In this document: positions 8,771 through 46,061 of the stretch, piece by piece
Numbering within the stretch: position 1 is the first letter of the stretch
How the letters are laid out: each line of letters starts with the position of its first letter
Assembly: GCA_964462665.1 (NCBI GenBank)
Contig: CAYWYT010000001.1
Location: 1-46,061 of the forward strand
Source: an uncultured Woeseiaceae bacterium
GTDB lineage: Bacteria > Pseudomonadota > Gammaproteobacteria > Steroidobacterales > Woeseiaceae
Length of the DNA: 46,061 bases
Reading direction: 5' to 3'
Made by a program: the position numbers and the translations under genes
The notes under the pieces: generated by a model
What the model was told of the DNA's origin: nothing
Seen by the model: only the letters and a program-made list of their open reading frames with translations
Database searches by the model: none

Positions 8771-8774
8771 CACT

Positions 8775-16020: not shown

Positions 16021-16130
16021 TCTCTGTCGACCCGTAGACTGACCTTGTAAGCAAAGCATTGTATAGCAGATCGTGAAAGCACCAACGACTGACTTCACAA
16101 TAACCTGATGGATGGCGGCGAGTGTCGGAG

Positions 16131-16146
16131 TGTGACCCAGTTCACA
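16131..16146. promoter_or_regulatory. perfect CRP/Vfr/Clp-type site TGTGA-N6-TCACA
   Basis: TGTGAcccagtTCACA lies in the 162-bp divergent gap between ATG 16020 (-) and ATG 16183 (+). Confidence 0.55.
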
Positions 16147-16182
16147 CTTTTGCAATATCGCATTCATCGGATACGTGGCATA

Positions 16183-29964: not shown

Positions 29965-30813
29965 ATGGGTCGAATTGAAAAAGCACTCAAGCACGCGAAG
30001 GAGTCTCACGACAGGGCTGGCAGAACGAAGGATGCGCCAGAAAATTATTCAGGGTCCAGTCGCGGTGCCACTGCGAACCAAACAGACACAGCTACGGAAA
30101 CGAGCCGCGTCTTTTCAACGCTATCTGACGCCGCGACGACGCACATACTTGATCCGCAAATCCTGCGGGAAAACCGGGTTACAACTGACGAGCAGAATTT
30201 CGCCATCCGATCAGCGTACAAAATGCTGCGAACTCGATTATTGCAGCGAATTCGGGCAAATTGCTGGAACTCCATGGCGATTTCGTCTGCGCGGTCGAGC
30301 GCGGGCAAAACGCTGACCGCAATCAATACGTCAATCAGTATTGCTCACGAACTCAATCAACACGTAATCCTGGTCGATCTGGACTTACGCAGACCGAGTA
30401 TTGCGGAATACCTGGGATTGGAACCACGCCATGACCTTGTCGAACACCTCGTTGATGGGATTCCAATCGAGGATGTCGTAATCAAGACCGACATCGACCG
30501 ACTTCTGGTGATCCCCACGATGTCACCCCAGGACAATTCTTCCGAACTACTTTCTGGCCCCGCGATGCATGCACTCGCGAATCGCTTGGCCAGTGATTCG
30601 GAGGGCGCCATCGTTATTTATGACCTTCCCCCGATGCTCGATGCAGACGATATGCTGGCATTTTCTTCCAGCTTTGATTGCTTGTTGTTCGTTGTCGCTG
30701 AGTGTGAGACACGTCGCGCAGACCTTCTGCAGGTCGAGAATGTGATTGAGGAAATGAATGTGGTCGGATTGGTCCTAAACAAGTCTAACGACACCGCGCC
30801 AGCCTACTACTGA
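29965..30813 (+). CDS. BY-kinase-like P-loop ATPase (CpsD/EpsG type), a separate polypeptide
   Basis: Walker A ARSSAGKT, Walker A' VILVDLDLRRP and Walker B IVIYDLPP. The C-terminus ..NDTAPAYY has only two Tyr. Confidence 0.75.
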   Translation: MGRIEKALKHAKESHDRAGRTKDAPENYSGSSRGATANQTDTATETSRVFSTLSDAATTHILDPQILRENRVTTDEQNFAIRSAYKMLRTRLLQRIRANCWNSMAISSARSSAGKTLTAINTSISIAHELNQHVILVDLDLRRPSIAEYLGLEPRHDLVEHLVDGIPIEDVVIKTDIDRLLVIPTMSPQDNSSELLSGPAMHALANRLASDSEGAIVIYDLPPMLDADDMLAFSSSFDCLLFVVAECETRRADLLQVENVIEEMNVVGLVLNKSNDTAPAYY

Positions 30814-30840: not shown

Positions 30841-32157
30841 TCATGCCCAACCGATACCCGAGTATTGATCGTGTTTTTCGGCTGGCCTCGCCGAACCGCA
30901 GAGATCCAGTACTCGCTGCCCGGGCTTGAGACGATCGACGATATCGCCAAATTCGTCGGACCCGTTGCCAACGACTACGAGTTCCGAATCTGCAAGAACC
31001 GAGTCAATATTTTCAGCCATTATTTTGGCAATGTGCGGCACGCGATTTAGTATGTAGTCGCGGTTAGCGCCTACCAATCGCGCAATGTTCACGTATTTGT
31101 CGTAGATACTAACTTCATAACCTTTTCCAATGAGCCGCTCGATCAGTTCGACAACAGGACTCTCGCGCAAATCGTCCGTACCCGATTTGAAGCTAAACCC
31201 GAGGACGCCAATCTTGCGAGCACCGGTGTCGCGGATCATATCCATACCTCGTTGAATTTGGCGTTGGTTGCTGACTGCAATCGAGTCCAGAATCGGCACC
31301 TCAACATCGAGACGAGTCGCCTTATAGGTTAGTGCGCGAAGGTCTTTGGGCAGACATGAACCGCCAAAGGCGAAGCCAGGCCTCATGTAGTACGTCGATA
31401 TGTTAAGTTTCTTGTCCTGACAGAAGATATCCATAATTTTCTGGCCGTCGAGACCCAACGATTTACTCAGGCTTCCGATTTCGTTCGCAAACCCGACCTT
31501 TAGAGCATGCCAAACATTGTCGACGTACTTGACCATTTCAGCGGTCTCGATGTCAGTGCGTATCTTCGGGCCCGGAAGAGATTTGTAAATATCCTCAAGG
31601 AACTGACCATCACCAGGCCTCGACTCACCAATTACGGTTTTTGGAGGATTGTAGTAGTCATACACAGCCGTGCCTTCGCGCAGGAATTCCGGGTTATTAC
31701 AAAGGCCGAAATCTTCGCCTGACTTTTTGCCCGACGCGCTTTCAAGAGCCGGCAGTACGGTCCCCGACATCGATCCTGGCAACATCGTGCTACGAATTAC
31801 CACGCTGTGTCGTGAGGACTTTTCTGCGATCGCCGCGCCGATTTCGTTACAGACTTTTTCAATGTAACTCAGATCTAAGCTGCCGTTTCTCTTGCTCGGC
31901 GTACCTACGCAGACAACGGACATGTCGGTAGCATTCACGGCTTCCGCCGGGTCCGACGTCGCACGAATTCGACCAGCAGACGCTCCAGCGGACAAAATTT
32001 CACCGACCTGATCCTCGACAATCGGCGATTTGCCAGCGTTGATCAGATCTACTTTGGTCGAAGTCGGGTCGACTCCCACGATCGTGTGCCCATCTTGCGC
32101 AAGGCAGCCAACCGAGACAGCGCCTACGTAACCTAATCCAAATACACTTATTTTCAT
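30841..32157 (-). CDS. algD: GDP-mannose 6-dehydrogenase
   Basis: Near end-to-end colinearity with P. aeruginosa AlgD as I recall it: MKISVFGLGYVGAVSVGCLA..GKSPIVE, VCVGTPSK.NG.LDL.YIE, NPEFLREGTA, MRPGFAFGGSCLPKDLRALTY (catalytic Cys), SFKSGTDDLRESP, ending ..GIGWA. Confidence 0.85.
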   Translation of the reverse strand: MKISVFGLGYVGAVSVGCLAQDGHTIVGVDPTSTKVDLINAGKSPIVEDQVGEILSAGASAGRIRATSDPAEAVNATDMSVVCVGTPSKRNGSLDLSYIEKVCNEIGAAIAEKSSRHSVVIRSTMLPGSMSGTVLPALESASGKKSGEDFGLCNNPEFLREGTAVYDYYNPPKTVIGESRPGDGQFLEDIYKSLPGPKIRTDIETAEMVKYVDNVWHALKVGFANEIGSLSKSLGLDGQKIMDIFCQDKKLNISTYYMRPGFAFGGSCLPKDLRALTYKATRLDVEVPILDSIAVSNQRQIQRGMDMIRDTGARKIGVLGFSFKSGTDDLRESPVVELIERLIGKGYEVSIYDKYVNIARLVGANRDYILNRVPHIAKIMAENIDSVLADSELVVVGNGSDEFGDIVDRLKPGQRVLDLCGSARPAEKHDQYSGIGWA

Positions 32158-32184
32158 CAGTTAGACCAACTTCTTCTTGAATGA

Positions 32185-33147
32185 TCAGTGGACCAGCGGG
32201 CCGGGGCGAAAACGCCTCGGTCCCAATAGTTTGTTCTTTGCTGCAGCACGAATCCCATCACACACGCCCAGGAATCGTTGTAGATTTCCGCTGGATACTC
32301 CAATGTAAAGCGTCCGAAGCAAGAGGCCGATAATCGACCAGTAACGAGCGACATGCCGCCAAAGTGACGCGCCCTGATTCTTGCGAAAGAAGTATTGAGT
32401 GAACAGCAGTCTGCGCTTCTCCATTTCTCTCGGAGAATTTCGCGAAACTTTTGATTTACTGTGCCGATACACAGCTTCGGGTGTGGTCAACAGCGAGAAG
32501 CTGCGAGATATACGATATGAAAGATCAAGATCCTCCGCCATCACGTACCCCGTGAGATCACGATCGAACTCGTACTGTCGGAAAACCTCAATTCGATAAC
32601 TGACTGCCGTGGACGGCATGATCTCGCATTCGCGAACACATGACAGCTCGGTCAAATGAATCGGAAAATTCGACGACTTTAGTCGACTGTGGGCGTCTTT
32701 TCGAGTTTCAGCCAACAAGAAGAATTTCTTATACCACCGCCAGAACCCTGTCGAGGAAACATAGCACGGATCAATGACCCCTGACACTCCGGCGATCCTG
32801 CGCTCGGAATCTCGTTCATAAAGTTCAAGTGTTTTTTGAATATAGTCCGACTCCAGCTCCACATCATCGTCAAGAAAATAGACTACGCTGCTGTCAACAT
32901 GCGTGGCACCCAGATTCCTTTGCATTGTTGTGCTCGGCGCGCCCTGCTGGTAAATAAATTCGATTTCAGACTCTTGGCAAGTGTCCTCGATCGGACCACG
33001 CACATGCTGCAAGTCACCTGCATCAATGACAATCAATTGACGCGGCCTTATCGATTGATTCACCACGGATTTGACACAACGCTGTATCTCATCCGGGCGA
33101 TTGAGTGTCGCGATAACAACAGAGGCTGTTTCCAGGGTTTTGGTCAT
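32185..33147 (-). CDS. GT2-family glycosyltransferase
   Basis: ASVVIATLNRPDEIQRCVKSVVNQS..LIVIDAGD and ..YFLDDDVELE (DxD). The start was trimmed to ATG 33145-33147 (track: 33243, which would overlap the upstream gene). Confidence 0.8.
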   Translation of the reverse strand: MTKTLETASVVIATLNRPDEIQRCVKSVVNQSIRPRQLIVIDAGDLQHVRGPIEDTCQESEIEFIYQQGAPSTTMQRNLGATHVDSSVVYFLDDDVELESDYIQKTLELYERDSERRIAGVSGVIDPCYVSSTGFWRWYKKFFLLAETRKDAHSRLKSSNFPIHLTELSCVRECEIMPSTAVSYRIEVFRQYEFDRDLTGYVMAEDLDLSYRISRSFSLLTTPEAVYRHSKSKVSRNSPREMEKRRLLFTQYFFRKNQGASLWRHVARYWSIIGLLLRTLYIGVSSGNLQRFLGVCDGIRAAAKNKLLGPRRFRPGPLVH

Positions 33148-33181
33148 ATCACAGAACCGTCGACGGTGCCGCACGGCGCCA

Positions 33182-34402
33182 TCACGCGCATTCGAATAAT
33201 TTCCGAAGCTGGGCCACGGACTTCTCATTGTTAAATTCTGCAATTACTTTCTGCCGCCCTTCCCTGCCATATTCGCGGCGCATCTCCGGGTTCTCAGCGA
33301 GCCGTTGAATCGCATCGGCTAACGAATCCGGGTCTTTCTCTGGAACGAGGAGGCCACTGACATTGGTCTCGATTAACTCTGGCAATCCGAGAATGTTGGT
33401 CGAAACAACCGGTAATTGACAGAACATCGCTTCCATCAATGCAACGGGAATTCCATCCCGCCAGCCATCATCCGATACGACACAGGGCAAAACGAATATA
33501 TCGGCGGCTTTGAGTTCTCGACGAACATCTTCGTGATGCAATGCACCCACAAGATTCACGTTGTCATCAAGGTGTAACTCGCTAATCAGGTTCTGCAAGC
33601 TTTCTCGCTCGGCGCCACCACCGACGATTGTACAATCGAATGCGAAACCATTGCTTTTTAGGCGCGCGAGGGCCGGAATTAAGATATGAAAACCCTTTCG
33701 TTTATTTAGCTGGCCTACGCTGACGATTCGAAGCGATGACCCGAGGGTACCGCCGGAACTGGTTCGCAAATTTGTGTCTGGGTCTATTCCACAGTGAATG
33801 ATGTGAATCTTGTCAGAATATTTTTGACCGTACGTCTTGATGACATAATTTTTGTTAAAGTCGGAAATCGAAACGCAAAACTTACATGATTCCAATTTCC
33901 TTTGAAACGCGATCGGATCGAGCCATATCATCGACGCGTGCATCGTAAAGGAATACGGAAGCCCGGCCAATTCTGCGAGAAACATCCCGAGCGACGTAGG
34001 TCCATTTATGAAGTGACAATGTATGTGGTCCGGCATGTCACTCTTAAGTCGGCGCAGCAAAAACGTCGATTCTATCAAGTGATAAGCGAGTCTAAAGTAG
34101 TCTCTCGGGAACTTCGCAGGCCGCGCGGAGATTACCCACCAGCAACATCTCAGAGTACGCACTGGCTTCGTCAGGAGCGCCAGAAAAAAGGAAACCAATT
34201 TGGGCGTCAAGCCCGCCTGATCGAGGTAAAGAGTTGAATTTCGGAGTTCACGAGCTTCTGACGATATGCTCTTGTCGTCCGGAGTATTCATCGACACAGT
34301 GTCGATCTTGAGCCCACCATGCCTTAATCGAAAAATCTCGTTATAAATAAACGTTACAGTCAAAGCTGGCAACGTCGCAGTAATGTAGAGAATTCTATCC
34401 AT
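33182..34402 (-). CDS. GT4-family glycosyltransferase (WcaL-like)
   Basis: The N-terminus LYITATLPALTVTFIYNEIFRLRHGG resembles WcaL-type GT4 enzymes. The C-terminus has PCVVSDDGWRDGIPVALMEAMFCQLPVVSTNILGLPELIE..VSGLLV. Confidence 0.8.
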   Translation of the reverse strand: MDRILYITATLPALTVTFIYNEIFRLRHGGLKIDTVSMNTPDDKSISSEARELRNSTLYLDQAGLTPKLVSFFLALLTKPVRTLRCCWWVISARPAKFPRDYFRLAYHLIESTFLLRRLKSDMPDHIHCHFINGPTSLGMFLAELAGLPYSFTMHASMIWLDPIAFQRKLESCKFCVSISDFNKNYVIKTYGQKYSDKIHIIHCGIDPDTNLRTSSGGTLGSSLRIVSVGQLNKRKGFHILIPALARLKSNGFAFDCTIVGGGAERESLQNLISELHLDDNVNLVGALHHEDVRRELKAADIFVLPCVVSDDGWRDGIPVALMEAMFCQLPVVSTNILGLPELIETNVSGLLVPEKDPDSLADAIQRLAENPEMRREYGREGRQKVIAEFNNEKSVAQLRKLFECA

Positions 34403-34602: not shown

Positions 34603-36177
34603 CTACTGTCCGCTGAAACCAGACACCGGTTTTGGACTCACCGTCGTCCGGTCCACCGGTGGCAGCGCAACGTCGGCGCGTACGATTTCCACCATATGCA
34701 GCGTCACACTCGTTGTCGCACGAATTGTTATGTCAGCGCCCTGATTTCCTGACATTCCTGCCGCAGGGACATCTACCTCGACAGTGCGCCAAACGCCGGA
34801 CCCTCCTCCGTCGATTGTCTGTGACGCTGAACCTGGAACTTCGATACCGAATTTCGGATTACCGGAATTGAAATACGTTATTCTAAGCCGAATGTTTTCG
34901 GACTCAATGTGCCGCGCCAGGCGGTCCTCAACCTGGAAGCGCATAAGGCCGCCGGCGGGAACGCGGCGCGCCCAGGCACCATGCCTCTGCCAATCTGGCC
35001 CGACGGTTTCAAGCACATCGTTGGCATCACCGCTCATGCGTGACATTAGAAACGTATAATCTCCGAGCAGGTACTGGTCTCCCTCGCGAAGCGCAACCCA
35101 GGCCCCGGGGGAAAATTCAGCAGCACTGCGCGTCTGGAAGCCAGCGTAACGGTTGCCAAACTCAAACGCGGCATCATATTCAGCGTCAACATGTCGCTCC
35201 AGGTCGGACCCATACACAGAGATGAACGTAACGCCGGCGTGGAGGTCACTCAGTATTCGCCAATAGTTCCACTGTGGCGGTGGCTGCTCACCCCGACTTC
35301 CTTTCGTAGAACTCGAATAGGGCTCAGCATAAACAGGCGTATCACCCTGGCGACCGAATTCGATGTGCTTCAGGTATTTTCGCTCGGTACTGCGACTAGT
35401 TGGTTCCGGCAAGCTTGATGTGTGCACCAAGCCCATTGTGCCCTGCTCAATCGCATTTTCCACGACTGCTGGCAAATTGTTGTCATTGCTAATCAAGACT
35501 ATTGTTCGGACAAATACAAGAAAATCAGGGACGAACAAATCATAGTAAGACTGGGCTACAAAGCGTTTGTATTCTTCGTTTACGGTATCTGAGTAAGGAA
35601 CAAAAGTTACGCCGGGTGGGATCGTCCATTGATTTTGAGGCCGATACCTTTCTTCGACTCCCGAATGTTCCGTGCCAAGAGCATTTAGATTGAGTCGTAT
35701 CGAGTACACAGAGTCTCGATTCGGAGATGCACGCAAATGATTGTTGAACGCCGTCAGCAATTCTTTATATCGCTGCATGTAGGTTGGATGCCAATACTGA
35801 AGCGAGCCCTTCTCATCATGTACGCCGAGCCCTAGACGTTGCGGATGATAAGGAACCTCATCAAACAGGAAATCCGGTTTAAAACTCCCCCGTATCGCGA
35901 CGGTTAACGGTTTGCCAAGACTAGCGTATCGCTCCAGTGCGTTGTCAATTTCGGTGAAGTCAAACTCCCCAGGCGCCGGATTGACGTCAATCCACTCCGG
36001 TGTAATGTAGCCACCGCGCACTTGCGGCATCGAGTCGACCGCGTAACTTCCCCAGATCTTGTGAATTCCCCAATCAGCGGGATCAGTACCGGCCAATGAC
36101 AGGCTTGGTATGCAGGCGAGCAGCATCAGAATAGCCGATATAATCACACTGACGAGAGGTCGGCATTTAGTTGGCAT
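34603..36177 (-). CDS. secreted hypothetical protein, glycoside-hydrolase-like TIM-barrel N-domain plus C-terminal beta-sandwich
   Basis: Signal peptide MPTKCRPLVSVIISAILMLLACIPSLSLA. ITPEWIDVNPAPGEFDFTEIDNALERYASLGKPLTVAI resembles the 'W..iEP..G.ydf..lD' opening of clan GH-A enzymes. No catalytic residues could be assigned by eye. The start was trimmed to ATG 36177 (track: 36252). Confidence 0.5.
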   Translation of the reverse strand: MPTKCRPLVSVIISAILMLLACIPSLSLAGTDPADWGIHKIWGSYAVDSMPQVRGGYITPEWIDVNPAPGEFDFTEIDNALERYASLGKPLTVAIRGSFKPDFLFDEVPYHPQRLGLGVHDEKGSLQYWHPTYMQRYKELLTAFNNHLRASPNRDSVYSIRLNLNALGTEHSGVEERYRPQNQWTIPPGVTFVPYSDTVNEEYKRFVAQSYYDLFVPDFLVFVRTIVLISNDNNLPAVVENAIEQGTMGLVHTSSLPEPTSRSTERKYLKHIEFGRQGDTPVYAEPYSSSTKGSRGEQPPPQWNYWRILSDLHAGVTFISVYGSDLERHVDAEYDAAFEFGNRYAGFQTRSAAEFSPGAWVALREGDQYLLGDYTFLMSRMSGDANDVLETVGPDWQRHGAWARRVPAGGLMRFQVEDRLARHIESENIRLRITYFNSGNPKFGIEVPGSASQTIDGGGSGVWRTVEVDVPAAGMSGNQGADITIRATTSVTLHMVEIVRADVALPPVDRTTVSPKPVSGFSGQ

Positions 36178-36244
36178 GAGAGATTCGACCCGAGTGAGTA
36201 CATTGATTAGTCGTATACATCGTACAGGCTGTTGCTGTCGAAAA

Positions 36245-36284
36245 CGTGACATACGTCACGCTTTAATTAGTGACACAGTTCAAA
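36245..36284. promoter_or_regulatory. two adjacent degenerate CRP-like sites
   Basis: cGTGAcatacgTCACg (36245-36260; 6-bp perfect arms CGTGAC/GTCACG) and aGTGAcacagtTCAaA (36269-36284) lie upstream of the 36177 start. Confidence 0.3.
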
Positions 36285-36328
36285 TTTTGTTAAATATTTT
36301 TCGATCAGTGCGAGTCTCCAGCAGGCGG

Positions 36329-37132
36329 CTAGTACCCCTGCCGTTCTTTCAATAATACATACATCTTTTCGCACATAGCCTCTATATCCGGATCAAGATG
36401 AGATTCGCTTCTACCTACCGATCGCGCGTGGATACTCGAAGTCATGCGGCGATCATAAGCGCAATCGATAAACCGACAAATCACATCCATAACCTTCTCA
36501 GGCATCGATACTAGGTCTTCATAGGCTAATGTTAGCACGCGCGCGTCGTTATCCAGGCCTTGCTCAAAATAGAGCGAGTTTCTGATATACCAGAAGAGGC
36601 CAGCCGCAGAATGCGGTGACATCGTTTGAAAGTCGTATTTTCGAAGAAGACTCAAGCTGCTCTCACTCAGTCCTTGCGCTTGCCAGCTGTCAAGCCGTTC
36701 ACCCCGCACAAACGCAGACAGAAACTCTAGATTGTTGGATCGAAACCGCGCGACGGCGGAGTTGGCCCGATCTGCAGCACGCCGATACACCCAAATGACT
36801 ACGGCGTTAGGGACGATCTCCAATAGCTCTCTGGCCCGGTGCGATTCGGTAAGTGGCTTGAACACGACTGCTTTACTGCGCGATCCCCGTACGACGGCGG
36901 CGACAGTCTCGTTGTCCTTGAGCCGCCAGTCTTTCATGGCCGCCGACGCCTCGCCGTATACCTCCAGCTCTGCAGATTCATTGAGACACCTAATGAGCAT
37001 GGTCGTCCCGGATCTCTGAGCGCCAAGCACGAAGACCGCCTTTGCATTTGGCGAGCAATTATTCCGAAACTGCCATAGCCGCTTGCGAGCCGCTACACGG
37101 CTTCGCTCGAGAAAACGGGTCAATTTGGACAT
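36329..37132 (-). CDS. sulfotransferase
   Basis: 5'-PSB loop VLGAQRSGTTMLIRCL and a 3'-PB-like VIWVYRRAADRANS. Confidence 0.75.
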   Translation of the reverse strand: MSKLTRFLERSRVAARKRLWQFRNNCSPNAKAVFVLGAQRSGTTMLIRCLNESAELEVYGEASAAMKDWRLKDNETVAAVVRGSRSKAVVFKPLTESHRARELLEIVPNAVVIWVYRRAADRANSAVARFRSNNLEFLSAFVRGERLDSWQAQGLSESSLSLLRKYDFQTMSPHSAAGLFWYIRNSLYFEQGLDNDARVLTLAYEDLVSMPEKVMDVICRFIDCAYDRRMTSSIHARSVGRSESHLDPDIEAMCEKMYVLLKERQGY

Positions 37133-37226
37133 GAGATTATCTGCTTGGCCAGTTGGAATGCCTGATGATCAAGGTACCGGCAGGCGATTATCCACAACCG
37201 CGACGTTGGGTCAACCTTGACTAGTA

Positions 37227-38243
37227 TTGCTCACCGAGACACCTGTCGAGTGCTCGGCCGTACTGGAATGGTCCCGGCAAAATCCGTACCATTCATTACC
37301 CTGTCGTTTTACAAGTGATATCGTGACAATCAACCCTCTCCGTCTGCTCTTGCGCAGCTCTTATTACCAGCGTCGGGTGCTCGCCCCTCAGATTGCAGGA
37401 TCCGATGATCTCGGGCGGGCCGTTAGTATCATCAGTTCTCGCTGGCCTGAGACAGTAAAGGACCGGGAATGCGAAGATTCGCCTATCTTTCTCTTCTCCG
37501 CCGGATGGGGATCAGGCTCCACACTCATACAACGGTTGATATCCTCCGATAAGAACACGTTGATCTGGGGCGAACCACATGATCACGGAATTGCAATACA
37601 CCGTTTAGCTGAAATGCTAGTTCCCGTGAATGATAAGTGGCCGCTCAATAACTATTTTCAACTGCCTGACAACTCGAAGCCAATTCAGGAGCAGTGGATC
37701 GCAAATTTTTCGCCGCCTGTTGTCGCACTACAAGCGGCGCACAGAAGTTTTCTCCAACGCTGGCTTCGTGATCCAGCATCTTCGTCTGGACGAAACCGAT
37801 GGGGAATAAAGGAAGTCCGGCTAACTGCCGATCACGCACGGTACCTGAAGTGGCTATTCCCGCGCGCCAAATTTATTTTCCTATATCGTGACGTGCTTGA
37901 CTCATACCGCTCATGCAAAGACGTCAAATGGCTAAGTGTCTGGCCGGATTACCCGGTAGGTAAGCCGACGGCTTTTGCGCATCATTGGAAGCACCTACTG
38001 CAGGGATTCATCAAACACGCCGATGAGCTCAACGCGTTGCTAATTCGATATGAAGACTTCGTGTCTGGAAAGACCGCACCTGGTCTGATCGCCGACCATC
38101 TGGACCTTCCAACAATGGATGAATCAGCTATCAAGGTCAGAGTCGGCGCACGCGCCAAGCGAAACAAGAGCTTAACTTACATCGAGACTGCGGTAATACG
38201 AGCGATCACGGATGACCTTCGGTCAAAACTGGACTATTGCTAG
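37227..38243 (+). CDS. sulfotransferase (divergent PSB loop)
   Basis: FLFSAGWGSGSTLIQRL (PSB-like, lacking the usual basic residue), RWGIKEVR.. and KFIFLYRDVLDSYRS (3'-PB). TTG start in the track, so the start is uncertain. Confidence 0.65.
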   Translation: MLTETPVECSAVLEWSRQNPYHSLPCRFTSDIVTINPLRLLLRSSYYQRRVLAPQIAGSDDLGRAVSIISSRWPETVKDRECEDSPIFLFSAGWGSGSTLIQRLISSDKNTLIWGEPHDHGIAIHRLAEMLVPVNDKWPLNNYFQLPDNSKPIQEQWIANFSPPVVALQAAHRSFLQRWLRDPASSSGRNRWGIKEVRLTADHARYLKWLFPRAKFIFLYRDVLDSYRSCKDVKWLSVWPDYPVGKPTAFAHHWKHLLQGFIKHADELNALLIRYEDFVSGKTAPGLIADHLDLPTMDESAIKVRVGARAKRNKSLTYIETAVIRAITDDLRSKLDYC

Positions 38244-39646
38244 GGCCGCCTCGTACGCGATTGGGTTTCATCCGGACGTTGTGTCGGCTCCCATCGAGAT
38301 CTCACCGCCTCAGTTTCCGCCGCGCTCTCCTTGCGACTTGTTGCAAGGAGACTACAGGTCGATAAAAACAGGGCGAACAATACGAATAGATAGTTTTGGT
38401 AGTCCAGCAAGCCTTCACGCAAGAATTCGATCCGTAACTGCGATACCGCAAATACGCTCAGAATTACCAGCCCTATTCGGGGCAAAGATGAAAGGGTCTC
38501 GTGTGAACTCCGTATCCGTTTTGCGGCCACGAGCCTTGACGACATCGACCAAAAAAATACTACCCACGATGCGATCCCGATAATTCCGGTTGTAAACATA
38601 ATATGAAGCGCGAGGTTATGCGCATGAAGCATGTAAGGAATGTCTGCTACCAAATTTTCTGGCGTACTGATGAAAAGTTTCGGGCCGTGGCCAAGAATGG
38701 GCGCATCCTGAATACGTTCCCATACGGTTGGCCAAACCGCAGCACGTGTATCCGGAACGCCACCTTCGATCGACGTTCCTTCGAGTCGATCAAACAGCAT
38801 TCCGTATTCGGTGAAATTCACCAGGATAATTCCGACGAGCGCAAAAATAGTCGCTCCGCCAACGAATATCTTAGCCACCCGGGCGAGGCCAAGTTCTCGC
38901 CGGAACACACCAAGAAACAGCAGAGCCCCAAAGACGATTGTTACAAACCCACCGCGGTTGCCGGTTGCGATAAGGAACAATACGTTCAAAGTCATTATTA
39001 GAACTACCGCGTGCCGAACATGGCGTGCGGCGCTCTGGATCAGGATGCGCCCCAGTAAAACACACTGAATTGTCAGGTATTCAGCCGTCGCCGCTGTTGC
39101 TTTGAAAGGACCGACGAGCCGCCCATCTTTGCGAATCGGATTCATCGACAGCTCCTGAATCCCGAAAAGCGTTACCCGCGTTTGTCCGGCAATAAACTGA
39201 ATCGCACAATAAATGAGCACCAAGACATTCAGAGCAAGCAGCACCTTGAAGACAAACTGCCAGTCCCGGGTCCGCAACACGAAGTTGTAAACTATGTAGA
39301 ACAACAGAATATTGGAGAAGAAACCGAAGATATACAGGACATGTTGGAGTCGTGCCGCCGGATGTGATTGCGAAAATGCGAGTAGAAAAGAGAAAAGCAC
39401 CAATAGAATGGGCAGTAGAAACGGCAATCGCGCTATTCGACCCTGCAACAGGAACGCAAATGCCGCGATATAAACGAGAACGGTATTAATGGTTCCGTAC
39501 TTGGAATCAATCAACTGAAACGGAATCATCAATAGTATGAAACCAACGCTTGCACGTTCAGGCAACCGAAACAACAGAATAAAATAGGCAATTCCGGCGA
39601 GCGCCGAAATTATTAGCTGCGCGTATTGCGAGTCAGAAAAGTCCAT
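38240..39646 (-). CDS. O-antigen ligase/polymerase family (Wzy_C) membrane protein
   Basis: About 11 TM helices. ..IATGNRGGFVTIVFGALL.. and a periplasmic loop followed by HAHNLALHIMFTTGIIGIASW (the 'H.HN..l....e.G..G' Wzy_C hallmark). Confidence 0.7.
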   Translation of the reverse strand: MDFSDSQYAQLIISALAGIAYFILLFRLPERASVGFILLMIPFQLIDSKYGTINTVLVYIAAFAFLLQGRIARLPFLLPILLVLFSFLLAFSQSHPAARLQHVLYIFGFFSNILLFYIVYNFVLRTRDWQFVFKVLLALNVLVLIYCAIQFIAGQTRVTLFGIQELSMNPIRKDGRLVGPFKATAATAEYLTIQCVLLGRILIQSAARHVRHAVVLIMTLNVLFLIATGNRGGFVTIVFGALLFLGVFRRELGLARVAKIFVGGATIFALVGIILVNFTEYGMLFDRLEGTSIEGGVPDTRAAVWPTVWERIQDAPILGHGPKLFISTPENLVADIPYMLHAHNLALHIMFTTGIIGIASWVVFFWSMSSRLVAAKRIRSSHETLSSLPRIGLVILSVFAVSQLRIEFLREGLLDYQNYLFVLFALFLSTCSLLATSRKESAAETEAVRSRWEPTQRPDETQSRTRRP

Positions 39647-39662
39647 TAGATTTGTTCAGGCT

Positions 39663-40712
39663 CTAGTCGGAAAAGTCTTGTGTTGGAATCGGCATTGCGG
39701 AATCGACTGAATAAGCAGAAACCCCAAAAATTTCAAGTACACGATGGACATCATCTTGCTGTTGTTCGCTCAGGTAAGATTGCCACGAAAGCACGAGCTT
39801 CTCGGCGGACGCCTTTTGCCCCATCTGATAGCTTGCCTGTTGCGACGGGCGCTCTAGAGTCTGCTCGTCCGGCACATTCGACAACTGCAACGCAGTCACC
39901 AAGTTATCCCAGGCGCCTTCTTGTCGTGTCACCAGGTTTTCATAGAATGCGAGATGAGGATCATGACCCGAACGCTCCAGATGGGGCACATTCTCGATGC
40001 ACCAAATCGCAGTATGAACCTCTGCCATAGACTTCAAATCGGCCAATTGTGGCGCAACGCTGGCGAGATAGTCCTGTACTAGCTTGGGCTGGTCAAGATA
40101 TCGATCGAGCAGTTGCCGAATTGAGCGCTTATTCCATTCCTGTCCTGAACGTCTGCACACGGATGCCAGGACAGCGCAAGGATGTCGCACGATAATTGCT
40201 GAGCGGTAGCCATACTCTCTTTGCATCCAGCGGGCCAGGAGATTAGCCCGTATGAATTTGATGACTCTCGGCAAACCCACCTGACGACGATATATTAACC
40301 ATCGACGGTAAGTCCGTCGGTATTGTACAGCCGTATCCTTTATACCTCTTTTCGTAAGAATCGTCCGGGGGTGCGGAAACAAGCGGTCCGGGCGCGTGCG
40401 TAGTCCGGGCCACAAACCCGCGTTTGTTCCTTCGATGATGCCATCAAGAAACACTCGCAATTCCGCGCAAGTTTCTTCAGCACGCACATAACGATTCGCG
40501 AATTCGTACGCACCGCGAACCGCCTGCGGATGTAGTGGTTCGAATACCGTACCAAGACCGTTTGATTCAGCGATAGCGTCCTGGACCCACGTCGTACCGC
40601 TTCGTCCGGAACCAAAGACAAATACCTGCCGGGTTTTCGAAGCTGCCAACGGAGGTTCAGGTGCTGTATTCAGGAATTTTTGCAAATCAGATCTACAGGT
40701 CTCGCTGACCAA
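39663..40712 (-). CDS. sulfotransferase
   Basis: VFVFGSGRSGTTWVQDAI (5'-PSB) and AIIVRHPCAVLASV (3'-PB-like). Confidence 0.75.
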   Translation of the reverse strand: MVSETCRSDLQKFLNTAPEPPLAASKTRQVFVFGSGRSGTTWVQDAIAESNGLGTVFEPLHPQAVRGAYEFANRYVRAEETCAELRVFLDGIIEGTNAGLWPGLRTRPDRLFPHPRTILTKRGIKDTAVQYRRTYRRWLIYRRQVGLPRVIKFIRANLLARWMQREYGYRSAIIVRHPCAVLASVCRRSGQEWNKRSIRQLLDRYLDQPKLVQDYLASVAPQLADLKSMAEVHTAIWCIENVPHLERSGHDPHLAFYENLVTRQEGAWDNLVTALQLSNVPDEQTLERPSQQASYQMGQKASAEKLVLSWQSYLSEQQQDDVHRVLEIFGVSAYSVDSAMPIPTQDFSD

Positions 40713-42289
40713 CGATAGACGCGAAGGCCATACTTTAGGTCGACGGCATCGGCAGTCGCGTATCTCTCAATCACATCAGCGACAGCATTGTTGACTCTGG
40801 TTCGGTTTCTCCACGCAGGCGCGTGCACTATGACAACGCCACTCGGGTTGCACGCAATAACCTGCTGCATGTCCGCTACGTCTGCGATGGCAACTCGACC
40901 TGTGCGCGGATCCAGTCCATCTTCGCTTCTCAAGCTATTGATGTCGGCGAGAGTCGTCGCGTTCAAAACAATATCAACATCTCCCAGATAATAAATTGAT
41001 TGTAATGGCTGGCTGCTGACCGTAACCGCGACGGAGTCTGCGATTTTCCTCAGGTCCTCGCTCGCAGCAGACCAATCCGTTGCATAACGGTCCCAGTATA
41101 CTGGAGGCTTTGTTGGTCGAGCCAGAATCATTCGAACGCCGGTTTCGACAGCTGGCGTCGTTGCCAAAATGAAAGCGGCGACACTTGACAACAAAATGAG
41201 TGCGGCGACGCTCTTCCCATTATCTGAAAACAGCGGCGTAGCAATCTGGCCAAAGCCATCACGAATTCTTGCATGAAGGATCCGACCCATCGAATCCAAA
41301 CCCACACCCAATAATATCAGCATGAAGGGGATGGCATAAAAAATGAACCGTTCTGCTCTCATGCCACCGAAAGATTGCGCAAAAAAAGCGACCAAGAAAA
41401 TACTCGCACAAAACGAAGCCGGAACCGGTTTCGCCATCAACGCTGCGATTAATGCCACCGGCAACAAACTCCAAAGTACTGCCAGCTGGGCGTTGAAGTG
41501 TCGATGATAGTAAAGGGGTCCGTCGCCTGTATTCCACATTGCCGACGATCGGTATACTCCCATCAAGTCAGCGATGAGCTCTCGCCCGAGAACGGCTGAA
41601 ATAAGAATTACCGCTGCGCCAGCAAGGGCTGCGACTAGTCCTGGCCAACCGCGCGGCATCCGATCCTTCAGCCAGCTCGAGTTGAGTACGAGTAACCAGA
41701 GGGCTATACCTCCAACGCCAATCAACGTTGTAATCTGCAGGTGCAAGCCGAGAAAGAGGAGCACAACAATCGCAAGAATCAGAAAGATTCGTCGCTGGCC
41801 GTCCATGCCTGATCGGGCGAGTGAATAACTGGCGCACGCGAGTAGAAAAAAAACCAGTGCGTGCAGCGAGTAAAAACGTATGTGCTGGGACAAGAATATC
41901 GCACCCGGCAAAATCGCGAGCAATCCCGAAGCGATAATCGCTGAACTTAGACTAAAATTCAGAGCAGTCCATGCGAATACGGCCGTGACGAGAAGTGCGC
42001 CAATCAGTGCGCCCAGAATACGGACAGAATTTACGCTTCCATCGCTCTGCGATTGAACAAAACCAACGAGTCGTGTGAAGATGGATGCCCGATGATACTC
42101 ACCATCGGCGATCGAAAGTATCCCGCTATCGACCCAAGACTTGCCTGCAATCAGGTGGTAGAGCTCATCCGTTATCGGTTGATGTTCCAGGTTGGACAAC
42201 CTGATCCCCACCGCAAAAACGAATACAACTGCCACATAAGCCAACAAGCGTCCCAGAGGAATCGCACTACTGTCGTGCATTGCTCTCAT
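40670..42289 (-). CDS. GT-C fold glycosyltransferase (ArnT/PMT, GT39/GT83-like) with a C-terminal soluble domain
   Basis: About 11 TM helices. The first loop HQPITDELYHLIAGKSW carries the acidic DE motif typical of ArnT/PMT_2 enzymes. About 170 non-hydrophobic C-terminal residues. The start was trimmed to ATG 42287-42289 (track: 42442). Confidence 0.65.
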   Translation of the reverse strand: MRAMHDSSAIPLGRLLAYVAVVFVFAVGIRLSNLEHQPITDELYHLIAGKSWVDSGILSIADGEYHRASIFTRLVGFVQSQSDGSVNSVRILGALIGALLVTAVFAWTALNFSLSSAIIASGLLAILPGAIFLSQHIRFYSLHALVFFLLACASYSLARSGMDGQRRIFLILAIVVLLFLGLHLQITTLIGVGGIALWLLVLNSSWLKDRMPRGWPGLVAALAGAAVILISAVLGRELIADLMGVYRSSAMWNTGDGPLYYHRHFNAQLAVLWSLLPVALIAALMAKPVPASFCASIFLVAFFAQSFGGMRAERFIFYAIPFMLILLGVGLDSMGRILHARIRDGFGQIATPLFSDNGKSVAALILLSSVAAFILATTPAVETGVRMILARPTKPPVYWDRYATDWSAASEDLRKIADSVAVTVSSQPLQSIYYLGDVDIVLNATTLADINSLRSEDGLDPRTGRVAIADVADMQQVIACNPSGVVIVHAPAWRNRTRVNNAVADVIERYATADAVDLKYGLRVYRWSARPVDLICKNS

Positions 42290-42512
42290 AACTCGTACCT
42301 TTTCAATGGCTTTCGTCGTGCGCAATTTGAAACGACGTATTGCTGTGCGGCCGCACCGGCAGATTCTAGCATAGCAATCCGGCAGTTCTGTGATGTACAT
42401 ATCAAGCTGGCATTGGATTGCGACCGGCATGAAATGGTCCAATTCGCTGTAGACGGCACTACTTGCGGCAGCTATTCTCCCGCCAAACCAGTAACAGAAT
42501 GTTCACCAGATA

Positions 42513-43295
42513 TTGAATAAACCACTCATATACATCGGCGCCATACGTCGATCGGGCTCGACGATGTTGTGTGAGGCACTGACTCAGCTGCCTCATTCAC
42601 TGGTATTTAACGAACCGAATATCGCTTCTGACCAGTTCGTCATTCGCCCCCATGAAGCCGCGCTACTACGCAGTATCGATATCGAGCTTGACGATTTCGT
42701 GCGTCGCTGGTCGATGTTCGGCCGTCGATTTCTGTTTCGCGGTGTGAGGACTAAGCTGTTTCCGCAAATCGCCCGCGACATCAGCCAAATCGGCATCAAG
42801 GAAATATTTCATGCAAACTGGCGGCGAATCGAAGCCGCATTTCCGGATCTCCGGATTGTGCTCACCGCCCGCGACCCGCGTGACATATACCTGTCACTCA
42901 AGAACCGTTACGAAGCGGGCACAGCGATTTGGGATGGAGTATTCTCACCTGAGCGAGTGGCCGAGTCCCTGAATGAGGAGTTTGGCTACCAGAAGCAGAT
43001 GCAAGACACACATAGCGTGCTCCAGGTTCGCTATGAAGATTTGTGTCTCGATTCGGCGATTCTGACGAGCGTGCTCGATTTCGTCGGCAGTGAAATCCAT
43101 GAAGTCGGGCGACTTGGTGGTTTTCTGGAATCTGACAGCAAGCGTATTGAAGAAAGCGAGCTGCATGGCGGAAAAATTACAGACAAAAGGGTCGCTCGGT
43201 GGCGATTCGAACCCGATAAAGGCAGAGTTCGTCAAGCGCATCGAGTCTACGAATTGATGCCGGAATACTGTGATTTTTGGGGCTACACTGAATAG
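42513..43295 (+). CDS. sulfotransferase
   Basis: IGAIRRSGSTMLCEAL (5'-PSB) and RIVLTARDPRDIYLSL (3'-PB RDPRD...S). TTG start in the track. Confidence 0.75.
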   Translation: MNKPLIYIGAIRRSGSTMLCEALTQLPHSLVFNEPNIASDQFVIRPHEAALLRSIDIELDDFVRRWSMFGRRFLFRGVRTKLFPQIARDISQIGIKEIFHANWRRIEAAFPDLRIVLTARDPRDIYLSLKNRYEAGTAIWDGVFSPERVAESLNEEFGYQKQMQDTHSVLQVRYEDLCLDSAILTSVLDFVGSEIHEVGRLGGFLESDSKRIEESELHGGKITDKRVARWRFEPDKGRVRQAHRVYELMPEYCDFWGYTE

Positions 43296-43302
43296 TATCC
43301 GC

Positions 43303-44835
43303 TTAATTCAGTTCTCTTTCCGGCCAGCGCTCGCGCCCCAGCATGCACCGGCAAATCCACAACGTACCGAAAAGATAAGCAAACCCAAAGATCAGCGGTA
43401 CGAACATCGCCCCGACGGCAATAAGTGTCACGAAGGGACCCGTGTCGCCGAGATAGCGTACGTCGATTAACCACACCAGTAACCCGCTGACCACTGCTCC
43501 TGACAATAGCCGACCGAGCGTCGACCAGTCCTGAAGGCGACCGAACGGAATCTGCATTACGAACGCCGCACGGCGAAAGTTGAAAAGCCTGGTAACAAGC
43601 GTACCGACAAGCCCTCCCAATGCGACACCGGGCAGCCCGAACGTCATTGCGCCTGCATAGCTCAGCACAGCTGAAGCCAGCAGTACGCCAGCGCTCACCT
43701 TGGCTACGAACGATCCCTGTTCGTAGACGATCAAGACTGTCGCCAGCTCGACACTCATCAATATCATTGCCAGCGAGTACACACGAATTATGGGGACTGC
43801 CTCCAGGTATTTGTCGGTAAACAAGACCTCGACCAACGGCGCCGCGAACAGCCAGATATAAACCACCGCGGGATAAACCAAAAAGCAAATAACCAAGTTT
43901 CCGCGGTTATTGAGCTCCAGCGACCGTGACACGTCGCCGGTTGCATGTGTTTTGCTCATCTTGGGGATAAGAACATTTCCGACAGATTTTCGCAGCAGCC
44001 GCAAGATCGAATTGAAGCTTCCGGCAATAGCGAACATCGCGAGTGCTTCCGGGATGAAGAATCCAACAACCAGCCATTGCTCGATCCGCCCGCGCGCTTG
44101 AGCAAGGATGCCGGAAAGACCGAACGGAAATGCAAATTTCATTTGTCTGCGCATTCCCGCCCATCGAAGAGACTGCAACCGGCTGCCGTACCGGGTCGCA
44201 CCGTAATAGACGAGTAGCACCATCTGTGCCGCTGCGAAGAAAAGAAGTGCTATAAAAATGCTCTCCAGATCGCGCGTGAACCACGCAGTCGCAGTAATCA
44301 ATACTGCGCGCAAGAGCGACAAGCAAATTATTGCCCGGGCCTGCCAACGAATGTCACCATCCGCATTTGGTAAAGTGAGTATTATCGACGACACGACCCA
44401 GAGAAACGCGAAAGCACCGAGTAGAGCATCTCTTTCAGTGAGCGCCCGAATCTGATCAGGCAACCAACTCTCGCCACTGGCTAGAGCCGCGGCGACGGGT
44501 AAGCTGACGATTGACAGAAACATTATTGTTTGACTAACGAAAGCTGCTCGTTCAACCGGTTCGGAGCGCGGCAAGAAATACAGCAAACTGCGCACCATGC
44601 CCATAGGCAGCAATAGGGTCAGGCTGTTGCCTACCAGCCAAAACAGTCGATACTGACCAAAGTCCGTAGGTGAAATCAATCGAACGAGCACCATCGGTAC
44701 CAGCAGTCGCAATCCGGCTTCAAATGCGTTAGCTAACGATAACCGCAACACTTCGCCGCGCGTACCTTGAATGCTTGTCATGGGTAGTTGTGTTTCCGTG
44801 ATCGAGCGTGCTGCCATGATGCCGATATCAAACAA
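43303..44835 (-). CDS. wzx: Wzx-type oligosaccharide flippase (MOP superfamily, Polysacc_synt)
   Basis: About 12-14 TM helices. The N-terminus ..LANAFEAGLRLLVPMVLVRLISPTDFGQYRLFW matches the family opening (..i..r.L.p..fG.y). The start is uncertain: TTG 44835, ATG 44817 or ATG 44781. Confidence 0.75.
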   Translation of the reverse strand: MFDIGIMAARSITETQLPMTSIQGTRGEVLRLSLANAFEAGLRLLVPMVLVRLISPTDFGQYRLFWLVGNSLTLLLPMGMVRSLLYFLPRSEPVERAAFVSQTIMFLSIVSLPVAAALASGESWLPDQIRALTERDALLGAFAFLWVVSSIILTLPNADGDIRWQARAIICLSLLRAVLITATAWFTRDLESIFIALLFFAAAQMVLLVYYGATRYGSRLQSLRWAGMRRQMKFAFPFGLSGILAQARGRIEQWLVVGFFIPEALAMFAIAGSFNSILRLLRKSVGNVLIPKMSKTHATGDVSRSLELNNRGNLVICFLVYPAVVYIWLFAAPLVEVLFTDKYLEAVPIIRVYSLAMILMSVELATVLIVYEQGSFVAKVSAGVLLASAVLSYAGAMTFGLPGVALGGLVGTLVTRLFNFRRAAFVMQIPFGRLQDWSTLGRLLSGAVVSGLLVWLIDVRYLGDTGPFVTLIAVGAMFVPLIFGFAYLFGTLWICRCMLGRERWPERELN

Positions 44836-45095
44836 TAATTGGAATCGGGCGTCCGCAATGCGGCGGGGAGGAACGTCTGGTCCGAAAGGATGCAGTGCCG
44901 CTTTCGGAAATCGGTGTTCGCCTGGAAGCCCATTTGTGGATTTTGGTAAATATGCGACCCCATCTCTCCCAAAACTGCTAACGTATCGCTGTAACAGCGA
45001 CTTAGGGAGGATTCCTGAGTGAATATTCTCTTGAGTAAGTCGGTTATGGTAGGGCAGCGCCTAAGCGAAAAAGATTAAGAAAGGCGCCGGTAATC

Positions 45096-45111
45096 TGTGA
45101 CGCAAGTCACA
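45096..45111. promoter_or_regulatory. perfect CRP/Vfr/Clp-type site TGTGA-N6-TCACA
   Basis: aatcTGTGAcgcaagTCACAgttt lies in the 460-bp divergent gap between wzx (-) and the FG-GAP gene (+). A GATAGT -10-like hexamer at 45132-45137 would put the site near -41.5. Confidence 0.55.
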
Positions 45112-45295
45112 GTTTTATAGCCAATTTCAAGGATAGTGTCACAGAACAAGGTGTAGTGTTTGCCTGCTGCCAATTAAGAAGAATCAAAACCTGAGCAGCC
45201 CGCCTCGCGCCAAATTACAAAAAAATTGAGACTTCAATGGCGGGCACCTATCCCAATGTTGGAAAAAAACAACACTATAACTAACAGGTATTATT

Positions 45296-46061
45296 ATGAA
45301 AAAGAGCGCTAATTCTTGTCCAGATAACCAGAATCCTGGGATATTCACGACGCGCAAGTCAGGTGGTTTCGTCCGCTCCGGTATTGCCGGCTGGGTGGCC
45401 ACTTTGGGCGTCCTGATCGTGGCACTCCCGGCTATTTCCGCGTTACAGGGAAATACGACCGTCGGCGACGTCAGTAGCGACGAAAATCGCACCCGTTCGG
45501 CTGCGATCGGCGACTTGAATGGCGACGGATTTCCCGATCTCGTGGTTGCAAATGAATCCGCGCAGCGAAATCAGATCTACTTTGGCGACGGCCTGGGCGG
45601 CTTCGGAGCAGCGGTCGACCTGGACAATCGGCAGGAAGTTACGGACTCAGTCGATCTTGCGGACGTTGACAATGACGGAGACCTTGATCTGGTGATCGGC
45701 AACCGCTCGACGACACAAGACAATCGCCTTTACACAAATAACGGCTCGGGTATTTTTCAGGCCAGAAATACGGCGGTCAACGACAGCACCTTTACGAGCC
45801 GCCAAACGAGTTCAGTTCGGTTCGCCGACCTCAACCAGGACGGCGATCCAGACATCGTCGTTGCCAATCGCAACTCGCGAAACGTTGTCTTACTTGGCAA
45901 TCCGGCAGCGGGCGTATTCGGGTTCCCAACTAACGACGATCTCGCTAACTCAGGTCAAACGGACTCCAGTTCAGTGGCCGTTGGCGATCTGAATGGCGAT
46001 GGTGTGCCTGAGATTGTGGTTGCGAATCGTCAAAATGCGAGAAACGATTTGTACATTAACA
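45296..46061 (+). CDS. FG-GAP/VCBS-repeat secreted protein, 5' part (continues beyond the window)
   Basis: My own translation from ATG 45296: MKKSANS...GIAGWVATLGVLIVALPAISA (signal/anchor). This is followed by at least four repeats of the type GDLNGDGFPDLVVAN..NQIYFGDG / DVDNDGDLDLVIGN..NRLYTNNG / ADLNQDGDPDIVVAN / GDLNGDGVPEIVVAN..NDLYIN. It is open to the window end and absent from the ORF track. Confidence 0.85.
   Translation, partial: MKKSANSCPDNQNPGIFTTRKSGGFVRSGIAGWVATLGVLIVALPAISALQGNTTVGDVSSDENRTRSAAIGDLNGDGFPDLVVANESAQRNQIYFGDGLGGFGAAVDLDNRQEVTDSVDLADVDNDGDLDLVIGNRSTTQDNRLYTNNGSGIFQARNTAVNDSTFTSRQTSSVRFADLNQDGDPDIVVANRNSRNVVLLGNPAAGVFGFPTNDDLANSGQTDSSSVAVGDLNGDGVPEIVVANRQNARNDLYIN

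Follow-up and report, generated by a model that had tools for sequence, protein, structure and literature searches.

How many positions of one polysaccharide repeat unit can a single bacterial gene locus sulfate? The question is raised by a stretch of 46,061 nucleotides from an uncultured Woeseiaceae bacterium (GenBank assembly GCA_964462665.1, contig CAYWYT010000001.1, positions 1 to 46,061 of the forward strand), here called the window, in which four genes for sulfotransferases (STs) of the type using 3'-phosphoadenosine 5'-phosphosulfate (PAPS) lie between positions 36,329 and 43,295, among the polymerase and flippase genes of an exopolysaccharide (EPS) or capsule locus. Few bacterial pathways for sulfated polysaccharides have been genetically defined, and those found have at most two or three STs. 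In marine sediments, Woeseiaceae-related bacteria belong to the most abundant bacteria. The locus is best read as encoding cytoplasmic, PAPS-dependent O-sulfation of a lipid-linked repeat unit within a Wzx/Wzy pathway, and we put the probability of this reading at about 0.7.

Four sulfotransferase genes around a polymerase and a flippase

An earlier note on this DNA, made from the sequence alone, had described four open reading frames (ORFs) with PAPS-binding peptides, and all four were found at the coordinates and on the strands given below. Residues of the 5'-phosphosulfate-binding (PSB) loop and of the 3'-phosphate-binding (PB) motif are listed with each protein (lengths in amino acids, aa).

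36329-37132 (-), ST1, 267 aa: soluble Sulfotransfer_3/Sulfotransfer_1 protein; GAQRSGTTML at residues 37-46, YRRAADRANS at 116-125; key residues R40 (PSB), E61, K92, R117/R118...S125 (PB) and YEDL 204-207
37227-38243 (+), ST2, 338 aa: sulfotransferase-fold protein; GWGSGSTLI at 93-101, YRDVLDSYRS at 220-229; key residues G95 (in place of the PSB Arg/Lys), E116, K195, R198 and R221...S229
39663-40712 (-), ST3, 349 aa: sulfotransferase-fold protein; GSGRSGTTWV at 34-43, VRHPCAVLAS at 175-184; key residues R37, E58, K152, R155 and R176...S184
42513-43295 (+), ST4, 260 aa: soluble Sulfotransfer_3 protein; IRRSGSTML at 11-19, ARDPRDIYLS at 119-128; key residues R13, E34, K96, R120...S128 and YEDL 174-177

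Judged by gene identity, ST1 to ST4 are PAPS-type sulfotransferases. A PAPS-loop pattern, [RKGW][ST]G[ST][TS][LMW][LVIMC], has exactly four matches in the six frames of the 46-kb window, one in each ST ORF, against a chance expectation of 0.10 ± 0.31 (maximum 2) in 300 residue shuffles of the same frames. Three of the proteins exceed the gathering cut-off of 27 bits for Pfam Sulfotransfer_3 (PF13469), namely ST1 (61.6 bits), ST2 (42.8 bits) and ST4 (42.4 bits). ST1 also lies above the cut-off of Sulfotransfer_1 (PF00685) with 37.1 bits, and in ST1 and ST4 the matches span almost the full profile (positions 1-213 of 216 in the PF13469 match of ST4). The earlier note would have counted failure in the sulfotransferase HMMs as refutation. 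These three proteins withstand that test, whereas ST3 on its own fails it, with 24.5 bits and a match confined to its N-terminus.

Despite this score, ST3 is by its structural model a sulfotransferase-fold protein, because its homologues pass Pfam, its family motifs are invariant and its model matches only PAPS sulfotransferases. The ST3 family counts more than 787 homologues, many of which carry PF13469 or PF00685 and the NCBI name sulfotransferase, including many that are 35-54% identical to ST3 itself. In the family alignment GSGRSGTTW, RHP...S and two Glu residues are invariant, and an AlphaFold (AF2) model built on this alignment has a pLDDT of 89.2. Its top 38 Foldseek matches in the PDB are all PAPS sulfotransferases, comprising tyrosylprotein sulfotransferases (TPST1/2), the OLS and CurM sulfotransferases, Stf1 and SULTs. 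Searched against the PDB, the ST3 profile gives weak but collinear matches to CurM/OLS. The AF2 model of ST2 (pLDDT 89.9) finds TPSTs at the top, at 1e-5, followed by Stf9, the CurM sulfotransferase and Stf1. For both models the top PDB matches are all sulfotransferases with a probability of 1.00, and profile-profile alignment of the ST2 and ST3 families with hhalign is collinear through every motif, so the folds of both proteins are established along with the gene identities.

The residues expected of the active site are largely in place. Polysaccharide sulfotransferases are defined by a catalytic Lys/Arg in the PSB and by an Arg and a conserved Ser in the PB (PMC11625862). The PSB Arg is present in ST1 (R40), ST3 (R37) and ST4 (R13), and the PB Arg...Ser and the strand Lys are present in all four proteins. 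Conservation of the motifs is likewise established, the PB Arg and Ser being invariant or nearly so in the ST families and orthologues. Moreover, a conserved Glu stands exactly 21 residues past the PSB Arg position in each protein (40 to 61, 95 to 116, 37 to 58 and 13 to 34 in ST1 to ST4). By alignment, this Glu is a putative catalytic base, with the same spacing as in the catalytic pair Arg78/Glu99 of human TPST2, where replacement by Ala costs the enzyme its activity (PMC10951654). No transmembrane (TM) segment is predicted in any of ST1 to ST4, and this soluble topology fits cytoplasmic enzymes that use PAPS.

Two of the gene starts probably differ from those listed or called. The true start of ST2 is probably GTG 37323, giving 306 aa in agreement with the gene call and the homologues. 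In the case of ST4, ATG 42564, from which the public gene call takes its 243 aa, lies within the PAPS loop, while ST4 orthologues conserve the 17 residues upstream of that ATG. TTG 42513 is therefore the more likely start, and the miscalled start accounts for the weak or absent precomputed Pfam annotation of ST4 and of its orthologue in locus L005. The start of ST3 overlaps the end of the neighbouring membrane-protein gene by 43 nt.

Within the window the four STs are 23-27% identical to one another in a multiple alignment, and BLASTP finds only local matches at the level of the motifs (E of at least 0.002). They are thus old paralogues and not recent duplicates, as had been suggested before. 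Their alternating strands (-, +, -, +) and their interleaving with Wzy, a membrane protein and Wzx were also borne out. Pfam agrees with the earlier labels of the polymerase (Wzy_C) and the flippase (Polysacc_synt_3).

38240-39646 (-): Wzy-type repeat-unit polymerase, 468 aa, polytopic; Wzy_C 64.6 bits, about 12 TM segments
40670-42442 (-): divergent membrane protein resembling GT-C glycosyltransferases (PMT_2/ArnT-like), roughly 590 aa; about 11 TM segments and a C-terminal soluble domain
43303-44835 (-): Wzx-type flippase of the MOP family; Polysacc_synt_3 57.2 bits, Polysacc_synt 39.6 bits, 12 TM segments

The GT-C label of the middle gene is reasonable on the basis of its relatives, of which 22 of 33 match PMT_2 (best 1.5e-6), three Glyco_transf_22 and one PMT. 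This transitive homology speaks for the label given in the earlier note and falls short of proving it, as the protein itself matches at best Glyco_transf_22 in Pfam, with a non-significant E of 0.018, and a PDB sequence search with it gave no match. D92-E93, just after TM1, is invariant in the family, as are Y116, R118, R141, R189 and Y191. The probable true start is ATG 42289, which leaves about 539 aa. An exhaustive profile search recovered 728 relatives as representatives at 50% identity with E <= 1e-30, and 3458 with E <= 1e-3; this large family has no Pfam model of its own. A word-indexed search had given 27 clusters and the picture of a rare family strictly tied to ST3, which was dropped once the 728 relatives were found.

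The cassette in other genomes and the surrounding locus

The cassette is syntenic in at least three other metagenomic lineages, represented by the sources below, with gene order and orientation conserved and three to five STs in each.

JGI/Logan contig, also part of an NCBI 'uncultured proteobacterium' metagenome-assembled genome (MAG): L003, L004, L006
Logan contig: L005
two Woeseiaceae MAGs: L007, L086, L087

Across L003, L005 and L007 the ST orthologues are 44-72% identical, and Wzy, Wzx and the glycosyltransferases (GTs) 53-67%. Orthologues of ST1 are 60-72% identical with the motifs kept, those of ST4 57-68%, and Wzy is syntenic in L003, L005 and L086. Since the identities of the STs fall in the same range as those of Wzy, Wzx and the GTs, the STs are long-standing, co-inherited parts of the locus, and their synteny and co-conservation across lineages are established. 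The set is not constant. The version in the Woeseiaceae MAGs lacks ST1 and has a methyltransferase and a faint Sulfotransfer_2-like ORF. In L003, L004 and L006 an additional ST-like ORF (13386-14474) lies between ST2 and ST1; in L003 it encodes 362 aa with GPPKTGTT, and with a Sulfotransfer_1 E of 0.0085, below the cut-off, it remains a candidate fifth ST.

Beyond these close relatives, at least 262 species genomes have genes of the ST3 family, as a rule surrounded by Wzx, Wzy, PCP (polysaccharide co-polymerase) and GT4 genes. Counts per locus were restricted to Pfam-verified STs within ±10 kb. On this basis three STs are found in each of L009, L019 and L036, and L022 (5363-20937, Gammaproteobacteria bacterium MGR_bin311) has five Pfam-verified Sulfotransfer_3 genes in an EPS-type locus, all inside about 16 kb and with neighbouring PCP, TyrK and GT4 genes. 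An iterated phmmer count per locus did not converge and drifted, the extra genes in Rubrobacter loci being non-sulfotransferases by Pfam, and was discarded. Four STs in one locus, which the earlier note had called exceptional, are thus matched or exceeded elsewhere: the syntenic loci have three to five, the unrelated L022 has five and several loci have three. EPS loci with multiple STs are fairly common in environmental genomes, and the present one is unusually ST-rich, yet neither new in kind nor unique among such genomes. As a separate observation, ST2-type and ST3-type genes co-occur in distant taxa (L009, L013, L026, L036, L074).

The entire window belongs to a single large EPS locus, and among its further genes are the following.

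27610-28206 (+): outer-membrane polysaccharide export protein (OPX), Poly_export/SLBB
28246-29949 (+): PCP; best NCBIfam match the XrtA/PEP-CTERM chain-length family, below the equivalog cut-off
29965-30813 (+): tyrosine autokinase; best NCBIfam match the XrtA/PEP-CTERM TyrKin family, below the equivalog cut-off
30841-32157 (-): UDP-glucose 6-dehydrogenase (UGDH), with UDPG_MGDP_dh domains in gene calls
32185-33243 (-): GT2, by Pfam
33182-34402 (-): GT4, by Pfam; EpsE-like in NCBIfam
34603-36252 (-): conserved signal-anchored protein, 549 aa, one N-terminal TM segment, same operon orientation as ST1
15061-16167 and 14087-15064 (-): two ArnC/GtrB-like GT2s with C-terminal TM helices
45296-46061 (+): 5' part of a giant FG-GAP/cadherin/Ig-like surface protein, by translation; 1124 aa on the full contig
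8691-10799 (+): heparinase II/III-family protein, HepC-like, 144 bits, far below the cut-off
18254-20140 (+): AsnB-type amidotransferase, Asn_synthase 326 bits
4580-6337 (-): 585-aa ORF with a PP-loop-like GLTGGYDSRL motif and no Pfam or NCBIfam match, possibly AsnB-like
22801-24612 (+): NodU-like carbamoyltransferase

Wzx, Wzy, PCP and OPX in the window make up the set of a Wzx/Wzy pathway together with a Bac_transf priming transferase, which follows the giant protein just outside the window on the 54-kb parent contig (ERZ23877653 NODE_76). In every related locus (L001 2043-5417, L003 17264-20617, L086 16227-19481) the neighbour of Wzx is a surface protein of some 1100 aa that combines FG-GAP, cadherin and Ig-like domains; in L001, L005 and L086 it is followed by Bac_transf. 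At the opposite end of the window, too, similar Ig/cadherin proteins are encoded. The block of UGDH, GT2 and GT4 (30841-34402) adjoins the ST cassette and has orthologues 56-70% identical in L003, L005 and L007. Between GT4 and ST1, the 549-aa protein shows weak similarity to GH42 (E = 0.035) and no relative in a PDB search; it may be a periplasmic glycan-processing protein. L005 and L007/L086 have orthologues of it and L008, L009 and L021 more distant ones, as a rule close to an ST3-type gene.

The two ArnC-like GT2s match best NF007986 (ArnC) in NCBIfam, with 123.8 and 173.7 bits, below the cut-off of 529, and are plausible candidates for synthases of an undecaprenyl-phosphate (Und-P) sugar that could serve as donor of the GT-C-like protein. 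They belong to an apparent four-gene operon, 12670-16167 (-), with the genes 13620-14090 (156 aa, a single TM segment) and 12670-13623 (317 aa, polytopic), neither of which has a family match. The N-terminus of the 317-aa protein may resemble HTTM-type domains. These four genes might form a second module for the transfer of lipid-linked sugars. In view of the AsnB-type, NodU-like and heparinase-like genes, amidation and carbamoylation of the polymer are further possibilities, as is a content of lyase-sensitive uronic acids.

The edge of the locus has a full-length c-di-GMP-I-GGC riboswitch aptamer at 1175-1258 (+), which matches Rfam RF03167 with 70.3 bits (gathering score 59) and E = 9e-15. 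About 150 nt further downstream come genes for an Ig-like/fn3 protein (1407-2051) and a surface protein of the cadherin/Big_9 kind (2174-4021), which suggests second-messenger control of the adhesin-like genes there. The window ORFs that were scanned yielded no two-component or STAND regulator.

The acceptor and the number of sulfations

In the pathway that we propose, a Bac_transf phosphoglycosyltransferase would prime undecaprenyl phosphate, and GT2 and GT4 enzymes would build a repeat unit containing uronic acid on the cytoplasmic face of the membrane. Up to four soluble, mutually distant Sulfotransfer_3/TPST-like STs would then O-sulfate the unit, linked to undecaprenyl diphosphate, in the cytoplasm, where sulfation is placed because this is the sole compartment holding PAPS. 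Wzx would flip the decorated unit and Wzy would polymerise it. The divergent GT-C protein would probably add a periplasmic sugar, drawn from Und-P-sugar made by the ArnC-like GT2s, and an XrtA-type module of OPX, PCP and tyrosine kinase would export the polymer. We infer the EPS repeat unit as acceptor, its sulfation before flipping, a position of its own for each enzyme and an active ST2; the multiply sulfated EPS and the four distinct acceptor positions of the earlier note have the same standing. Everything beyond gene identity is prediction.

Several points weigh against this reading. The locus is known here from the genes of a metagenome contig alone. The sub-threshold Pfam score of ST3 has been given above. 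The nearest solved structures of ST2 and ST3, which are protein-tyrosine and polyketide sulfotransferases, are just 13-19% identical (TM-score about 0.4-0.59), so that acceptor specificity cannot be read from homology. With five GT4s and three GT2s besides the GT-C, the window has about eight GTs in addition to the latter, leaving room for more than one glycan. None of the roughly 33 substantial ORFs of the window matches a PAPS-synthesis family, confirming an absence already remarked upon in the earlier note, and PAP-recycling genes are likewise absent from the window. A scan of 36000-45600 for promoters and terminators stayed at chance level. Finally, the loop of ST2 (nt 37503-37529), GWGSGST, is one residue longer than usual and has Gly95 in place of the catalytic Arg/Lys.

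This loop is not a sequencing quirk, because it is conserved across a sample of the ST2 family. In an alignment of 30 sequences AGWGSGSTL is conserved, its A, G, W, G, S, T and L being invariant and one Ser conserved in at least 90%, and the position of the Arg has Gly as its consensus. All of the 120 homologues listed, out of 533, carry PF13469. A subfamily of Sulfotransfer_3 proteins thus has GWGSGST instead of G-x-R/K-S-G-T/S-T. The family retains the aligned Glu, Lys and Arg and the PB Arg and Ser. Since ST2 and its whole family are without the PSB Arg/Lys, the activity of ST2 is uncertain: to judge from these residues, it may be active with a different stabilisation of the leaving group, or it may have diverged in function.

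The number of sulfations could accordingly be smaller than four. ST2, and possibly others, might be non-catalytic or diverged, for example as a PAP(S)-binding scaffold, as a regulator or through some other chemistry, or the paralogues might be alternatives used under different conditions; in either case one to three sulfates would be expected on the polymer. The Gly conserved throughout the ST2 family at the catalytic position speaks for this, all the more as the equivalent R78A mutant of TPST2 is strongly impaired (PMC10951654). The ST set also varies among loci, with ST1 missing from the Woeseiaceae MAGs and a possible fifth ST in L003, and in the synechan system a mutant of xssE hardly altered EPS accumulation (PMC8205485). 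We nevertheless consider such a reduced number unlikely. In ST2 the aligned Glu, Lys and Arg are still present, as are the Arg and Ser of the PB, the protein passes the Pfam cut-off, the conservation of its loop in the 30-sequence sample of a family of more than 500 points to a working active site rather than to decay, and ST2 is as conserved across lineages as its neighbours.

An acceptor other than EPS appears improbable for any of the STs. Lipopolysaccharide, a glycolipid or tyrosine residues in a secreted protein, for instance the FG-GAP/cadherin giant, would come into question, in the manner of TPST or RaxST, given that TPSTs are the top structural neighbours of ST2 and ST3, that the giant protein adjoins Wzx in every related locus, and that characterised bacterial Sulfotransfer_3 members such as NodH act on glycolipid signals (PMC11625862). 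However, TPSTs are merely the nearest solved representatives, at the low identities and TM-scores given above. The STs are interleaved, and partly overlapping, with Wzy, GT-C and Wzx and co-vary with them across lineages; distant ST3-family genes also stand among Wzx, Wzy, PCP and GT4; and neither a RaxX-like peptide nor type I secretion genes were seen. Least credible of all is the suggestion that the P-loop-like motifs are due to chance and the ORFs are not sulfotransferases. It can point to the ST3 score and to single-sequence phmmer searches of the PDB with the four STs, which gave almost nothing (the lone match being ST1 to 4gox, of the OLS/CurM sulfotransferases, at 2.5e-5), and it is refuted by the HMM and structure results: three of the four proteins pass curated cut-offs, both modelled proteins have the sulfotransferase fold, four pattern matches stand against 0.1 expected, and families with hundreds of members conserve the motifs in collinear order.

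Cytoplasmic sulfation of the EPS repeat unit hence remains the preferred reading. The locus would hint that an uncultured, probably sediment-dwelling clade of Gammaproteobacteria makes polyanionic sulfated EPS. A more specific proposal is offered as speculation that will probably not hold: the core of ST4, GT-C, ST3, Wzy, ST2 (with or without ST1) and Wzx would direct a clade-specific, very highly sulfated uronic-acid EPS resembling a glycosaminoglycan, with three to five sulfates per repeat, in Woeseiaceae-related bacteria, which would represent an unrecognised bacterial source of sulfated glycans in marine sediments, and the ST2 family would be a mechanistically distinct subclass of sulfotransferases. 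The ST2 family is suited to testing whether a sulfotransferase can do without the "obligatory" PSB Lys/Arg. Furthermore, a compact cassette of four distant STs, conserved over deep divergence, would provide candidate regiospecific carbohydrate sulfotransferases for glyco-engineering.

Comparison with known systems

At the level of single proteins, the STs share with TPST, the CurM and OLS sulfotransferases and Stf1 (3ap1, 5wrj, 4gbm, 4gox, 2zq5) the fold, the PSB strand-loop-helix, the Glu at +21, the strand Lys and the PB Arg...Ser. They differ in that the acceptors of those enzymes (protein tyrosine, a polyketide beta-hydroxyl, glycolipid) are not expected here, and ST2 differs by its Gly for the PSB Arg in a loop longer by one residue. 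The ArnC-like GT2s with C-terminal TM helices and the polytopic GT-C-like protein with an acidic DE after TM1 recall the ArnC/ArnT and GtrB/GtrC pairs; unlike these, the GT-C-like protein of the window has no significant Pfam match, its relatives alone matching PMT_2.

The export genes resemble those of XrtA/PEP-CTERM EPS loci (TIGR03027, TIGR03007, TIGR03018, TIGR03108), where OPX, PCP, the tyrosine kinase and the AsnB-type amidotransferase find their best matches, and the window GT4s resemble stp2 and stp3. In contrast to those loci, all scores lie below the equivalog cut-offs (132.8 < 180, 222 < 279, 145 < 231 and 611 < 817), and no exosortase or PEP-CTERM protein was identified among the window ORFs. 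No literature was found that links Woeseiaceae or PEP-CTERM-type loci with sulfotransferases.

Among whole clusters, the nearest one described is the synechan xss cluster of Synechocystis sp. PCC 6803, which combines Wzx/Wzy with two STs, and its sulfate stoichiometry equals the number of STs (PMC8205485). The present locus is similar in being a Wzx/Wzy EPS cluster with a PCP, many GT2s and GT4s and STs from distinct bacterial subfamilies inside the cluster. The xss cluster, with two STs against four here, is cyanobacterial, plasmid-borne, without GT-C or ArnC-like genes and regulated by XssQ/R/S, counterparts of which were not seen in the window, whereas the window locus has XrtA-type export genes and UGDH; moreover, synechan is a chemically defined product, while the window locus is known from genes. 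The sulfated capsular polysaccharide clusters of Vibrio sp. KMM 8419 (PMC11641403) and Cobetia marina KMM 1449 (PMC11766843) are, like the present one, gammaproteobacterial surface-polysaccharide loci with carbohydrate sulfotransferases. A single ST is found in the cluster of Pontiella (PMC7356697). In Vibrio sp. KMM 8419 three STs are spread over about 80 genes and two glycans, the capsular polysaccharide being made by an ABC-transporter pathway, with cysDNC in the cluster (PMC11641403). Here, by contrast, four STs surround Wzy and Wzx in a span of 7 kb, and the window is without PAPS genes. With four STs, the Woeseiaceae locus exceeds any published cluster that we found, the highest numbers being two for synechan (PMC8205485) and three for Vibrio sp. 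KMM 8419 (PMC11641403).

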